NCBI GenBank assembly: GCA_964420015.1
Contig: CAYQPO010000002.1
Location: 7,997-71,996 of the forward strand
Direction: 5' to 3'
DNA: 64,000 bases
DNA from: an uncultured Candidatus Saccharibacteria bacterium
GTDB lineage: Bacteria > Patescibacteriota > Minisyncoccia > Phycocordibacterales > SBAW01
Below are positions 50,947 to 57,335 of this stretch, piece after piece. Made by a program: the position numbers and the translations under genes. Each line of letters begins with the position of its first letter. Within the stretch, counting starts at the first letter, position 1. A model generated the notes under the pieces. That model was not told the DNA's origin. It made no database searches and saw nothing but the letters and a program-made list of their open reading frames with translations.

Positions 50947-51557
50947 AGCTGTACCAAAAAAATCCAAAGGGTTTTACGTTGATTGAGATCCTGGTCTCAG
51001 TGGCAATTTTTGCGATTGTGATGGTGATCTCGCTCGGCGCACTGCTCGCCATGTCCGAGAGCGATCGCAAGGCCCAGACGCTCAAGTCGGTCATCAACAA
51101 TCTTAACTTTTCGCTCGACTCTATATCGCGCGCGATCCGCACTGGCCAAAATTATCACTGCGATATAACGCAGACGCCGCTTGCTGCTCCGCTCGACTGC
51201 GCGGTGTCCCCCGGGACCTCGATTGCGTTTGTGCCTTCGGGCGGAGGGACCACCATGTACAAGTTTGAGAGTGCGAGCGCCAGTATCTGCGGGCAGTCGG
51301 GCACCGTGGGGTGCATCACCCGCTCGACCGACGGCGGTGCGACGTTTGCCGCTATCACCGCACCCGAGGTGGTGGTTTCTTCGATGAAGTTCTACGTCAC
51401 GGGCGCGCAGAGTGCCGGGATCCAACCAAAAGTGACCATTTTGCTCTCTGGCGTGGTTGCTCCCAAGGGGGTGGTGGCCAACTGCGGGGGGCAATCGTCC
51501 GCTTCGACCTGCTTTAACCTCCAGACCACCGTGACGCAGCGTCTCTACGACCAATGA
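50940..51557 (+). CDS. minor pilin
   Basis: KGFTLIEILVSVAIFAIV. Confidence 0.75.
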   Translation: MLKLYQKNPKGFTLIEILVSVAIFAIVMVISLGALLAMSESDRKAQTLKSVINNLNFSLDSISRAIRTGQNYHCDITQTPLAAPLDCAVSPGTSIAFVPSGGGTTMYKFESASASICGQSGTVGCITRSTDGGATFAAITAPEVVVSSMKFYVTGAQSAGIQPKVTILLSGVVAPKGVVANCGGQSSASTCFNLQTTVTQRLYDQ

Positions 51558-52141
51558 TAAAAAAAATCTTCAATAGGGGTTTTACTCTAATCGAGACACT
51601 GGTCGCGGTGCTTTTGCTCGCCTCAGCGATTGCAGGACCGCTCACGATTGCCTCCAAAGGTCTCTCTGCAGCATTGGTGGCCAAAGACCAAATTACCGCA
51701 TTCTTTCTTGCACAAGACGCGATGGAGCAGGTGCGTTTTTTGCGCGACAGCGCGTGTCTTGCCTCAGGCGGCGGGGCAGGGGGCTGTGCTGCGAATGTAT
51801 GGCTCTCTTCTCTGTCCCCGTGTGTGAGCACCGACGGCGTTGCCTCGTGCAAGCTCGACTCACTTGGCTTTTCACCCGCAAACCCGGTCGCATGCGATGC
51901 GGCTAGCTGCTCTGCGAGCACCGATGTCTTGCACTTCGACAGTACGAACAACAGCTTTAATTACAATCAGTCTGCACCGCTGAGCACGCAGCGCTATGTG
52001 CGTGTTATCCAAATCCAAAACGACCCCAACGGCACCGCCCCCGACGAGGCAGTAGTCACGGTTAAAGTAAGCTGGAGTGACATCGCCGGGGTCACGCATG
52101 CGCCGATCATTGTGCGAGAAGATATATTCAGATGGCAATAA
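51554..52141 (+). CDS. minor pilin
   Basis: RGFTLIETLVAVLLLAS. Confidence 0.75.
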   Translation: MIKKIFNRGFTLIETLVAVLLLASAIAGPLTIASKGLSAALVAKDQITAFFLAQDAMEQVRFLRDSACLASGGGAGGCAANVWLSSLSPCVSTDGVASCKLDSLGFSPANPVACDAASCSASTDVLHFDSTNNSFNYNQSAPLSTQRYVRVIQIQNDPNGTAPDEAVVTVKVSWSDIAGVTHAPIIVREDIFRWQ

Positions 52142-52632
52142 ATAATCGAGGGTTTACAATCTTTTTTGCAATGCTGGTGGGCGCTTTGGCGCTCGCGGTT
52201 GGCGCGGCAATCTACGACCTCACGGTGCGCGAGATCGACCTCTCTAACACAGCAACGCAGTCGCAGTACGCCATTTATGTTGCCGACACGGGTGCTGAGT
52301 GTGCGCTCTACTGGGACCTTAAATGCAGTTTGGGGGCGTGTTTTGCAGGGAGCGCGTTTGCCACCTCGAGCCACTCAACCGTGCCCGGCTCAGGAGCATC
52401 CTGCAGTGGGCAAGACATCGCCGCGGGGTGGACCGTCGACACCGCGGAGAGCGCTGCGACCACCACCTTTAAACTCACCTTTTTGCCTCAGCCCTATTGC
52501 GTCTTGGTAACGGTGGCTAAGCGCGGCAACCCAACACTCACCACGATCGTCTCGCACGGCTACAACACCAGCTGTCCACCGGGGACCCCAACAGCAACCC
52601 GTCTTGAACGCACCTTGCAGGTAGACTACTAA
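52132..52632 (+). CDS. minor pilin-like protein (atypical, no Glu+5)
   Basis: NRGFTIFFAMLVGALALAV. Confidence 0.55.
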   Translation: MAINNRGFTIFFAMLVGALALAVGAAIYDLTVREIDLSNTATQSQYAIYVADTGAECALYWDLKCSLGACFAGSAFATSSHSTVPGSGASCSGQDIAAGWTVDTAESAATTTFKLTFLPQPYCVLVTVAKRGNPTLTTIVSHGYNTSCPPGTPTATRLERTLQVDY

Positions 52633-54858: not shown

Positions 54859-55521
54859 ATGAGCGAACGACAGCTTGCTGAACTCACCGGCAATCTCGTG
54901 CGGCACCAGCACTGCTTCGGTGCGATGTCGAACGACGACCGTCAGTGGACAATCAACAATCCGGCGGCGGCGATTGGCCTGTTTGCCGAGGCGGTGAAGA
55001 ACCGCAACAGCGGTACGGCGGCCGAGCGGAAGTCGCTCGAAAAGAAGAAGCAGCCAAAGCTTCTTGTCTCGGACGGCCACTACGCAGCCGTCGAGGCCAC
55101 TGAGCGTCACGAACCAGGTACGTTCTGGCAGACGCGCTCCGGCTTGTACGTGTACGACGACTTTCGTACACGCGTCGTCGCGGCAGCCACGCCGACCGAA
55201 GCTGGAGCGACGTTCAAGAAGCTCCCGCGCTTCAAGCTCGGCCGTAATGCCACTGGCGAGGAATTGAAGACGGCGCGTCCGAATGGTATTTGGACGGCGA
55301 CCGACTTCTGCCCCTGGCTTGCCGCAAAGCTTGCAAAGCAGGCGAAAGGCGAGGACGGTGAGTTCCTCACCAACGGTTGGGCCAACCTATTCTTGGTCGA
55401 AGGAGTTGGAGGCGAGGTCTTCGTCGTCCGCGTGCGCTGGGGCGTCGGCTTGTGGCTCGTCTACGCGTGGCCTCTCGGCCACGGCTGGCACGATGGTCGC
55501 CAGTTCGGCTCTCGCAACTGA
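54859..55521 (+). CDS. DGR variable (target) protein with C-terminal C-type-lectin-like variable region
   Basis: 220 aa; start inside ORF 54820; the C-terminal 36 codons coincide with the VR; ends ...WHDGRQFGSRN*. Confidence 0.8.
   Translation: MSERQLAELTGNLVRHQHCFGAMSNDDRQWTINNPAAAIGLFAEAVKNRNSGTAAERKSLEKKKQPKLLVSDGHYAAVEATERHEPGTFWQTRSGLYVYDDFRTRVVAAATPTEAGATFKKLPRFKLGRNATGEELKTARPNGIWTATDFCPWLAAKLAKQAKGEDGEFLTNGWANLFLVEGVGGEVFVVRVRWGVGLWLVYAWPLGHGWHDGRQFGSRN
55409..55519 (+). repeat. DGR variable repeat (VR)
   Basis: ~109-111 bp; identical to the TR at 55847-55957 except at 20-21 positions, every one a TR adenine. Confidence 0.9.
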
Positions 55522-55537
55522 CCAATTGCAACTTTGT

Positions 55538-55558
55538 GCGCCCGCCTAAGGCGGGCGC
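55538..55558 (+). promoter_or_regulatory. GC-rich hairpin just downstream of VR/IMH (DGR homing cruciform-like element)
   Basis: gcgcccgcc-taa-ggcgggcgc, 9-bp stem, 3-nt loop, 17 nt after the VR end; a second IR, ccccttgga...tccaagggg, lies at 55564-55612. Confidence 0.6.
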
Positions 55559-55846
55559 ATTGACCCCTTGGACACTCTGGCACTGTGCCGGAATCCAAGG
55601 GGTCTTTCGTTTTGATATAATGGCCCTGAAACCTTTGGTGATGCGGCGGTTAGGGCTTCCGTGTGGAGGTTTTGGAAGAGACAAATGCCTGAGTTCTTGC
55701 GGCCAAGGCTTCAAGAAGAGTGCGTTGAATCTTTCTAAAAAATAATTGGTAGTTGGTACTTGAAATTGGCGGACTTATAAGGTCCCACATTCGATACAGC
55801 CCGGAGAGTATTCGGTGGGTGGTGGTTCAGAAGGTTTCGAGTACGA

Positions 55847-55957
55847 GAGGCGAGGTCTTCGTCGTCAACGTGAACTGGAACGACGGCAAGTGGAACGTCA
55901 ACACGTGGCAACTCGGCAACGACTGGAACGATGGTAACCAGTTCGGCTCTCGCAACT
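55847..55957 (+). repeat. DGR template repeat (TR)
   Basis: contains 8 AAC plus AAG and CAA codons at the positions that vary in the VR; followed by a hairpin tctctcgc-N10-gcgagaga. Confidence 0.9.
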
Positions 55958-55977
55958 CTAGTGATTTCTCTCGCGCT

Positions 55978-56265
55978 CTATGGTGCGAGAGTTTTTGCAA
56001 CCAACCCTTTTCTCCACCCGCCTAGTATGCGTCCAAGTTCGTGCGTTTTTTCTGATAGATTCACGTATTTTTTATCGTCTAGCGCCTGCAGTTCCCATGC
56101 GACACGCAGAAGGAATTTTAACGTATCCGTTTTCTTGATTGCAATTTCAATCGTTGGCAACTTGTTTGCTCGACCCTGGTAACTCGCTGTAAAGAGCAAT
56201 TCAAGGATTTGAATAAACAAGCTATCTATTTTATCGCCAAGCGTATAGCGAGACTTTTTCGGCAA
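55978..56265 (-). CDS. avd: DGR accessory variability determinant (Avd, four-helix-bundle); start codon apparently lost to a frameshift in the G11/C11 tract
   Basis: aligns to Bordetella-phage bAvd (HLPKKSRYTLGDKI~IPRKHGVAREM; ...HELGRILGGW~EVGRILGSW). In-frame helix-1 coding continues upstream to 56355 with no start codon; the ATG at 56380 is off by one frame across the homopolymer. Confidence 0.7.
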   Translation of the reverse strand: MPKKSRYTLGDKIDSLFIQILELLFTASYQGRANKLPTIEIAIKKTDTLKFLLRVAWELQALDDKKYVNLSEKTHELGRILGGWRKGLVAKTLAP

Positions 56266-56307
56266 ATGGTCGCGGCATTCGTGCCAAAACTTGTATACTG
56301 CTACAGC

Positions 56308-57335
56308 ATGCTCGATAACAGGAAGAATTCGTTGGGGGGGGGGGTCGTAAAGGACTCACGCATACATACGAGAATATCATTTCTGTTGAAAACTTGCTCT
56401 CTGCGTGGCGCGAGTTCTGTCTTGGCAAACAAATTAAAAAATATTTAAGGGATTTTCAATTTTTTTGGATGGACACATTTCTTTGCTTTCATTCCGATTT
56501 AAAAAAAAAACCATAAAAACACGGACGATATCACGCCTTCAACATCTCCGACCCAAAACCGCGCAACATTCACAAGGCCTCGGTACGCGATCGTCTGCTC
56601 CACCATGCCATCTACCGAATATTGTATCCATATTTTGATAAGAAATTTGTATTCGATTCCTATTCTTGCAGGATAGGCAAGGGCACCCACAAGGCCATGA
56701 ACCGCTTCCGATCTTTTGCCTACCAAGTGTCCAAAAACCACACCCGCACTTGCTGGGTACTCAAGTGCGACATCCGTAAGTTCTTTGCGAGCATTGACCA
56801 CCAGATACTGTACGCAATCCTCGAAAAGTACATACAAGACGAGGCAATGCTCTGGTTGCTTCGAGAAGTTGTTAATAGTTTTTCATCAAGGTCGAACCTT
56901 GATGTTGGTCTGCCGCTCGGCAATCTCACGAGTCAGCTTTTGGTCAACGTTTACCTAAACGAGTTCGACCAGTATGTGAAGCACCAACTCAAGGTTAAGT
57001 ACTACATCCGCTACGCGGACGACTTCGTGCTCCTTTCGCACGACAAATCGGTACTACAACAAACACTTCCATATATGGAAGTGTTTCTGAGGGAGCATCT
57101 CAAACTAAGCTTCCATCCGGACAAGGTATACATTAAGACTCTGGCTTCGGGTGTCGACTTTCTCGGCTGGGTACACTTTGCTGACCACCGCGTGTTGCGT
57201 ACTGCTACCAAGCGACGGATGTTGCGACGGCTGTGCGAACGATTGGGGCAGGAGGGAGCAGAGGCAACGAGGCAGGCGTACTTGGGAATGTTGAGTCAAG
57301 GTAATACCAAAAAATTGCGGGACAGGTTAGTATAG
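56308..57335 (+). pseudogene. DGR reverse transcriptase, apparently disrupted (5' frameshift at the G11 tract plus an in-frame TAA at 56514 right after an A10 tract); intact ORF only 56622..57335
   Basis: frame-0 translation aligns with Bordetella Brt across the stop: ENIISVENLLSAWREF...DLKKKP*KHGRYHAFNISDPKPRNIHKASVRDRLL...CRIGKGTHKA...GLPLGNLTSQLLVNVY...YIRYADDFVLL (YxDD). Confidence 0.8.
56334..56344. repeat. homopolymeric G11 (C11) tract in the antisense overlap of the avd and RT 5' ends
   Basis: seen in sequence; the avd frame closes with run length 10/13, the RT N-terminus from ATG 56308 with 9/12; the current 11 fits neither. Confidence 0.85.

Follow-up and report, generated by a model that had tools for sequence, protein, structure and literature searches.

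A conserved repeat at the avd/reverse transcriptase junction of Patescibacteria diversity-generating retroelements, a candidate slipped-strand switch

Does a homopolymer tract at the head of a mutagenic reverse transcriptase gene mark a dead gene, a sequencing error or a switch? The question is raised by a diversity-generating retroelement (DGR) in a 64,000-nucleotide stretch of DNA from an uncultured Candidatus Saccharibacteria bacterium (contig CAYQPO010000002.1; the whole analysed stretch is called the window below). In this DGR, avd, the gene of the Avd accessory protein on the minus strand, and the reverse transcriptase (RT) gene on the plus strand lie head-to-head, almost without intergenic DNA. 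A run of eleven G (G11) sits at their junction, and a run of ten A (A10) followed by an in-frame TAA interrupts the RT frame further in. An initial annotation of the window had offered all three answers. We compared the junction with those of related DGRs and found that the G tract is very probably a conserved and hypermutable feature of the family, as judged from sequence comparison. Our reading, held with moderate confidence, is that this tract would act as a slipped-strand switch on the RT.

The two tracts stand out from their surroundings. They are the longest homopolymers of the window, in which G or C runs otherwise reach at most 7 and A or T runs at most 8. Their presence in this cassette, with no comparable runs elsewhere, is more than chance would give. 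The G11 tract is the only G or C run longer than 7 in 64 kb, long enough to slip and far above background, as expected of a contingency locus.

All 73 related loci for which the upstream DNA extends far enough have avd as the immediate upstream neighbor of the RT, on the minus strand and head-to-head with it, with 24-107 nt between the Avd 'LPV' and the RT 'HTY' motifs. A simple repeat occupies the junction in 71 of 74 Patescibacteria DGR loci, in the kind of comparison with orthologous cassettes that the initial annotation had proposed. The repeat is a run of G7 to G13 in 64 loci (G7 in 3, G8 in 8, G9 in 16, G10 in 16, G11 in 15, G12 in 4 and G13 in 2). A subclade (L011, L021, L027, L050, L058 and L060-L063) carries (GA)5-15 in place of the G run, and a single locus, L080, has (CT)10 on the RT strand. 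The G is always on the RT-sense strand, and nine of the ten replacement repeats are purine-only on that strand. The tract is kept also where it lies in neither open reading frame (ORF). Only 3 G or C runs of at least 8 were found in 434 kb of DGR-flanking DNA, compared with G runs of at least 8 at 58 of the 74 junctions. Since the repeat is family-wide, the presence of a G run in the window is no artefact of assembly, though the exact count of eleven may be a miscall. The flanks also hold three other G runs of 10-11 (L010 at 3404, L010 at 5253 and L041 at 1338), the sole ones in the 434 kb, and these may be further contingency loci.

Length polymorphism of the tract, which the initial annotation had suggested looking for, was seen between contigs of two relatives' populations, so that the length varies among near-identical genomes, as at known contingency loci. 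The first population comprises 13 groundwater contigs (L081-L093), with the cassette closest to the window's RT. These contigs are 99.3-99.96% identical over ~3 kb, except for L089 (98.5%, ragged at the contig end). Compared with L081, there is one gap opening per contig (four in L089); its position, judged from the junction alignment and from the shift in tract coordinates, is the tract. Tract lengths are G9 in three contigs, G10 in four, G11 in four and G12 in one, with G14 in L089. Contigs that share the same three single-nucleotide polymorphisms carry G9, G10 or G12, and one contig has zero mismatches to the reference and differs in the tract alone. The variable region (VR) of the DGR target gene differs in two contigs of this population, indicating that this DGR has been active. 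The second population (L094-L102) carries G8, G9 and G10 on DNA that is 98-99.9% identical. In both populations, hardly any indel other than the tract was seen. Within single 90% clusters, protein N-termini differ by a frame switch or by one extra Gly. In these relatives, the tract length shifts through replication slippage at a far higher rate than that of point mutation. In L100 (515-524), the base after the tract is changed from T to G relative to L094 (G9T to G10C...) on otherwise identical DNA. This change fits the GnT hotspot of mutation reported in PMC12344412.

What would such length changes affect? The distance from the tract to the RT ATG is exactly 13 nt in 19 loci and 11-14 nt in several more. 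The hexamer directly after the tract in these 19 loci begins with T in all of them, has A at the second position in 16 and ends with T in 18, and its middle positions are free. This succession of TAnnnT, 7 nt and the RT ATG is the majority arrangement, and the tract belongs to neither ORF there. The TAnnnT pattern looks like the signature of a bacterial -10 hexamer, and the 7 nt to the ATG would fit an mRNA with no leader or almost none. On its upstream side, the tract is separated by a short filler from NGG(C/T)AA, which is antisense to the initial Avd codons and weakly resembles a -35 element. The lengths of tract and filler are anticorrelated (r = -0.67, permutation p = 0.0017, n = 17, shared ancestry being ignored by this statistic), and the total spacer measures 17.1 +/- 1.3 bp. 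A spacer of ~17 bp is optimal for sigma-70 promoters. The compensation between tract and filler to about this length suggests that the tract is a variable promoter spacer. The tract lengths of G9-G12 in the first population would give spacers of 16-19 bp between TTGCGG and TACGCT. The tract lies where a contingency locus is expected, directly upstream of the -10-like hexamer and the RT ATG in the 19 loci and inside the 5' part of the RT ORF in the clade of the window. The -10 pattern is present in the majority type and absent from the window, where the hexamer after the tract is TCGTAA.

The reading frames of the window bear on the second arrangement (Table 1). The G11, the A10 and the TAA of the RT frame are all present, as initially described. 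RT homology continues in one frame on both sides of the TAA (...HSDLKKKP*KHGRYHAFNISDPKPR...) and is stop-free to 57335, the TAA being its sole interruption. At G11, the RT frame joins neither the ATG at 56308 nor the TTG at 56332, and no near-cognate start follows the tract. The ATG at 56308 opens a non-RT frame (MLDNRKNSLGGGVVKDS...*) that ends after 46 codons; a tract of G9 or G12 would join it to the RT frame, as the initial annotation had worked out. The Avd frame of the minus strand is free of stops from 56355 downwards and reads VLYDPPPQRILPVIEHAVAVYKFWHECRDHLPKK..., and no ATG, GTG or TTG was found in it between 56355 and the TTG at 56265. The initial annotation, which had noted the lack of a canonical start, had overlooked an ATG at 56367-56365 in this frame; the TGA at 56358-56356 closes it three codons later. 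With the RT lacking an in-frame start and broken by the TAA, and avd lacking a canonical start, the window does not present the intact expressible genes that an active element needs. Long ORFs in the window end at all three stops (TAA 17, TAG 17 and TGA 7), so both in-frame stops are real and genetic code 11 applies. An alternative code with TGA or TAA as sense was ruled out on the same grounds, large genes being intact under table 11. Slippage at A10 or -1 frameshifting past the TAA was also ruled out, as the RT homology before and after the TAA shares one frame and a shift leads into non-RT sequence.

The distance between tract and RT 'HTY' is shorter in about one-fifth of the G-type loci, which include the window, L002, L007, L013, L048 and L103-L105. 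In most members of this clade (the window, L002, L007, L013, L048 and others, but not L103), the stretch from the tract to the RT His codon contains no start codon. The RT ORF must therefore start upstream in these loci and read the tract as Gly codons. In L048, a tract of G8 joins the RT frame to the ATG homologous to that at 56308 of the window, which likewise follows TATACT and 8 nt, in agreement with the frame relation described above. In L104 (G13), the RT frame connects to an ATG that precedes the tract by 6 nt. L103 (G10) and L105 (G9) are out of frame and are annotated as truncated genes. Among the contigs of the second population, G9 connects to an ATG that follows TAGAAT and 7 nt, G10 uses another ATG and G8 has none. 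The TATACT...ATG sequence is also the antisense of the conserved Avd codons HAVAVY, so conservation of this motif is no proof of a promoter. In the subclade with (GA)n repeats, every frame encodes Arg-Glu repeats without stops, and frame analysis is uninformative for those loci.

The initial annotation had extended the frame argument to avd, proposing a start at an ATG at 56380 across the tract and mutually exclusive antisense frames for the two N-termini. This part does not hold. The closest Avd relatives (L048 and L103-L105) start beside the tract, at a TTG that encodes the L of LPVIEH, lies outside the tract and often follows ATT. The NCBIfam profile DivGenRetAVD begins at the same L. Where the relatives have (ATT)TTG, the window has ATT (56328-56326) and CTT (56325-56323), so its fault is the CTT and no frameshift is involved. 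Three other loci (L037, L042 and L072) have ATT TTA at this site. By this comparison, the only conceivable Avd start in the window may be a weak AUU. Upstream antisense ATGs were considered as Avd starts; ~38% of loci have one in frame, which is about the chance level, and they were not used as evidence.

The second tract of the window has a different status from the first. The TAA stands, as had been noted, at the position of a Tyr: the residue (Y62) is Tyr in 32 of 32 aligned homologs, and its codon in 102 other loci is TAC in 59 and TAT in 43, TAA occurring in the window alone. The A run at this site is at most 7 in the relatives, A10 being unique to the window. The A10/TAA is therefore, on codon comparison, a private lesion of the window, and the idea of A10 as a second, family-wide switch is ruled out. 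The proposal of a slipped-strand switch survives for the G tract, which is family-wide and polymorphic on near-identical DNA, and fails for A10/TAA. Even at G12, the TAA would truncate the RT at about residue 70. The window's RT departs from strongly conserved residues at 8 sites (0-12 in its homologs), and four of the eight lie within residues 38-53, just before the TAA. As the number of deviations is within the homolog range and four are clustered before the TAA, any decay is recent. The segment 56400-56520 is AT-rich, and D38Y, V39L, L46W and L53F fall there at residues that are otherwise 88-100% conserved. The minus strand of the same segment carries TTGAAA, 17 nt and TAATTT, which may be a candidate avd promoter. 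We consider it quite likely that the DGR copy of the window is non-functional as sequenced, and it should be treated as such at present. It is probably in an off state, most likely silent and starting to decay.

In the mechanism that we propose, the tract of the majority type would fill most of the ~17-bp gap between the -35-like hexamer, formed by the antisense of the first Avd codons, and the TAnnnT -10 element. A one-base change in length would tune or switch RT transcription, in a manner like that of porA and fim (see below). In the clade of the window, where the ATG after the tract has been lost, the RT would start at the ATG at 56308 or the TTG at 56332, with the tract as Gly codons and its length toggling translation; the window would be off at G11 and on at G12 or G9. 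From the arrangement of the loci, we infer that the promoter-spacer effect, not frameshifting, is the commoner mode in the family. The window copy, having spent some time switched off, would now be decaying, with its RT and Avd otherwise still well conserved. In its full form, the proposal is that the junction repeat is a conserved contingency locus that stochastically switches or dials the RT, that only a changing subpopulation of cells thereby diversifies the target protein and that off lineages, such as that of the window, drift into pseudogenes. We regard the odds of this full form as even.

Several observations weigh against a length-dependent switch. The candidate -35 matches the consensus at only 3-4 of 6 positions and falls on conserved codons of Avd. 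Scanned with a strict sigma-70 model, the junctions of L081 and of the window gave no call. The tract/filler correlation takes no account of shared ancestry, as stated above. Among clade members without an ATG after the tract, the share of in-frame loci is about that expected by chance, and selection for the on state is not demonstrated. Within each population, some contigs may have been assembled anew from reads that had already yielded another. Illumina sequencing also has difficulty with long G runs, as seen from the Ns directly after G8 in L057 and the ragged sequence of L089 at the tract. No second sequence of the window's own strain was recovered, an exact 29-mer being absent from the metagenome contigs searched. 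Finally, the G runs and the GA repeats alike consist of purines alone on the RT strand, which may be a sign that something besides mutability matters. The Ns in L057 also indicate that assemblers or scaffolders break at the tract, and DGR surveys may lose or mis-annotate such cassettes.

In an unlikely alternative, the tract has a fixed, length-independent role and its length polymorphism is an unavoidable by-product. Candidate roles are polypurine/polypyrimidine pausing or insulation of divergent overlapping units, an R-loop, and reiterative transcription or RNA-polymerase slippage. The constant strand of the G run, the purine-only replacements and the retention of the tract outside both ORFs all favor such a role. 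It fits less well with L080, where the repeat is (CT)n on the RT strand, and with the constant geometry of TAnnnT, 7 nt and ATG, which fits a promoter. Moreover, tract and filler compensate each other to ~17 bp, so the total length matters and changes in it should have consequences. Recoding is an improbable explanation of a different kind: RNA-polymerase slippage on G11, ribosomal frameshifting or both would yield some in-frame RT mRNA at any tract length, leaving the RT constitutively low. Homopolymers of at least 9 are generally known to give heterogeneous transcripts, for example in Thermus dnaX and in insertion sequence (IS) elements, and many members of the window's clade look off in their DNA. 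Recoding would not rescue the TAA of the window, where a frameshift at A10 enters a non-RT frame, and it is inapplicable to the majority type, in which the tract lies upstream of the ATG.

Two further alternatives concern the window itself. Sequencing or assembly error would mean that the true sequence has G12 (or G9) and TAT or TAC, with the cassette intact. Runs of 10-11 are the most error-prone, assemblers struggle at the tract in L057 and L089, and the remaining RT and Avd are well conserved. However, the TAA is a base substitution and no length error, the Avd start codon is two bases off that of the relatives, and there is a cluster of four unusual substitutions immediately ahead of the TAA. 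As for the tract, the family comparison shows it to be real. Homopolymer error as a general cause, which the initial annotation had listed, is unlikely as well, the other runs of at least 7 in the window being inside intact long ORFs. We give error a small probability, slightly above that of recoding. Plain pseudogenisation, in which the DGR is dead and the G run was merely the mutational hotspot that broke the gene, would account for three separate lesions within ~200 bp. It leaves unexplained both the spacing compensation and an uninterrupted repeat at the exact site in 71 of 74 diverged relatives, against 3 runs in 434 kb of flanking DNA, and we consider it very improbable. A switch acting through the G tract, followed by recent decay of the window's copy, is the reading that we keep.

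The surrounding cassette is a Patescibacteria-type DGR, with a target gene carrying the VR, a separately terminated template region (TR) RNA, avd on the minus strand and the RT on the plus strand (Table 1). VR and TR differ at 20 positions in 110 bp, each at a TR adenine, and are otherwise identical, as first reported. The RT matches Pfam RVT_1 with 87 bits and has the DGR-type motifs LGNLTSQ ([LIV]GxxxSQ) and YADD (YxDD). It is 56-72% identical to Patescibacteria RTs that lie beside an avd gene (best 72%). Avd scores 50.7 bits with Pfam bAvd (cut-off 40) and 68.8 bits with DivGenRetAVD, below the cut-off of 80; its best identity is 75%. The homologs of RT and Avd all come from metagenome-assembled genomes (MAGs) of Patescibacteria, also called the candidate phyla radiation (CPR). 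A Pfam and NCBIfam search of the target protein gave no family match, and no second RT, Avd or VR was found within the window. The inverted repeat after the VR is in the usual place of the DGR hairpin, downstream of the initiation of mutagenic homing (IMH) site, as in Wu et al. (PMC5758913) and in line with general DGR knowledge.

The terminator-like hairpin after the TR, together with the candidate -10-like TGATATAAT, suggests that the TR RNA is a separate transcript and that the RT needs its own promoter. The TR is thus probably, from the arrangement of these elements, a self-contained non-coding RNA gene that is not co-transcribed with the RT. The strict sigma-70 scan did not call TGATATAAT at 55613-55621. 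A similar hairpin follows the TR of L081 (1099-1121). Between the candidate TR promoter and the TR, the only Rfam match, a sub-threshold one to RT-15 RNA, was seen at 55683-55752 on the plus strand (20 bits against a gathering threshold of 82, E = 0.035); an Rfam search of eight relatives gave no match, and the match in the window is probably due to chance. Further upstream, at 51554-52632, two adjoining ORFs have prepilin-type N-termini (GFTLIETLVAV... and GFTIFFAMLVG...), suggesting that a type IV pilin-like cluster immediately precedes ligA and the DGR.

Table 1 Features of the DGR cassette; positions are those of the window, and the G11 and A10 runs were read from its sequence.
Feature	Position	Strand	Remarks
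DGR target gene, 233 aa	54820-55521	+	ORF; VR at its 3' end
Variable region (VR)	55410-55519	+	Aligned to TR
GC-rich inverted repeat, TGCGCCCGCC-TAA-GGCGGGCGCA	55537-55559	+	Just 3' of VR; read from sequence
Candidate extended -10-like element TGATATAAT	55613-55621	+	Putative promoter of a separate TR RNA, ~230 nt upstream of TR
Template region (TR)	55848-55957	+	Aligned to VR
Terminator-like hairpin and T-run	55968-56000	+	10-pair stem 55968-55991, then TTTTTGC; directly after TR; overlaps avd stop
avd (Avd four-helix-bundle accessory protein)	55978-56328	-	Pfam bAvd, NCBIfam DivGenRetAVD; frame open to 56355, no canonical start
TATACT (56294-99), 8 nt, ATG (56308-10)	56294-56310	+	Candidate RT start upstream of tract; antisense of Avd codons HAVAVY
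TTG and G11 tract	56332-56344	+	TTG 56332-34, G11 56334-56344, overlapping by one base; hypermutable simple-sequence tract at the avd/RT junction
DGR reverse transcriptase frame	56346-57335	+	Homology starts at GRKGLTHTYENII; LGNLTSQ, YADD; broken by TAA
Minus-strand ATG (56367-56365) and TGA (56358-56356)	56356-56367	-	Avd frame at present tract length; MYA*VLYDPPPQRIL
A10 (56501-56510), CCA, in-frame TAA (56514-56516)	56501-56516	+	At invariant Tyr of RT

Both contingency loci of the slipped-strand type and DGRs are familiar in themselves. A conserved hypermutable repeat that would gate a DGR RT is undescribed in the searchable literature: no description of a poly-G tract or of phase variation in DGRs was found in searchable full texts, including, by term search, the text of Wu et al. 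2018 (PMC5758913). Outside the Bordetella phage model, DGR regulation is poorly understood, as are the reasons why many environmental DGRs appear inactive, and mutagenic retrohoming is costly. If the proposal is true, switching the RT would amount to bet-hedging on hypermutating at all. It would account for the many 'truncated' or oddly started RT and Avd calls in Patescibacteria MAGs, and annotators and DGR-finding pipelines should not discard such cassettes as broken. Tract length would also provide a sequence marker to set against VR diversification in metagenomic time series.

Promoter-spacer phase variation is known from Neisseria meningitidis porA, with poly-G between -35 and -10, and from opc of the same species and fim2/fim3 of Bordetella pertussis, with poly-C. 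As in these systems, the DGR family has a G run of ~9-13 directly upstream of a -10 hexamer, one-base slippage would shift the -35/-10 spacing about the 17-bp optimum, and near-identical strains differ in tract length. Unlike these surface antigens, the gene here is a mutagenic reverse transcriptase of uncultivated Patescibacteria, and the candidate -35 of the family is a weak one that lies within the initial codons of the divergent avd. In Haemophilus influenzae, the divergent fimbrial promoters of hifA and hifB have (TA)n in their shared spacer. The DGR repeat likewise lies between two head-to-head genes of one system and could affect both, and the (GA)n loci are its dinucleotide version. 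Unlike at hifA/hifB, no -10-like element was found on the avd side of the DGR tract.

The in-ORF type resembles the poly-G contingency genes of Campylobacter jejuni and Neisseria, of which examples are given in PMC4965091 and PMC5084427. In the clade of the window, the tract falls in the first ~10-25 RT codons, and its lengths give full-length or truncated gene calls. In contrast to those genes, the DGR start codon is uncertain, the on state is not clearly enriched, and the tract is non-coding in most family members. With the DGR of Bordetella phage BPP-1 (mtd-avd-TR-brt) and the CPR DGR set of Wu et al. 2018 (PMC5758913), the cassette shares adenine-specific TR/VR differences, Avd, an RT with LGxxxSQ and YADD, and a GC-rich hairpin after the VR. 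It differs from both in the orientation of avd, which is inverted so as to face the RT head-to-head, in a terminator that belongs to the TR alone, and in the hypermutable repeat at the junction between avd and RT.

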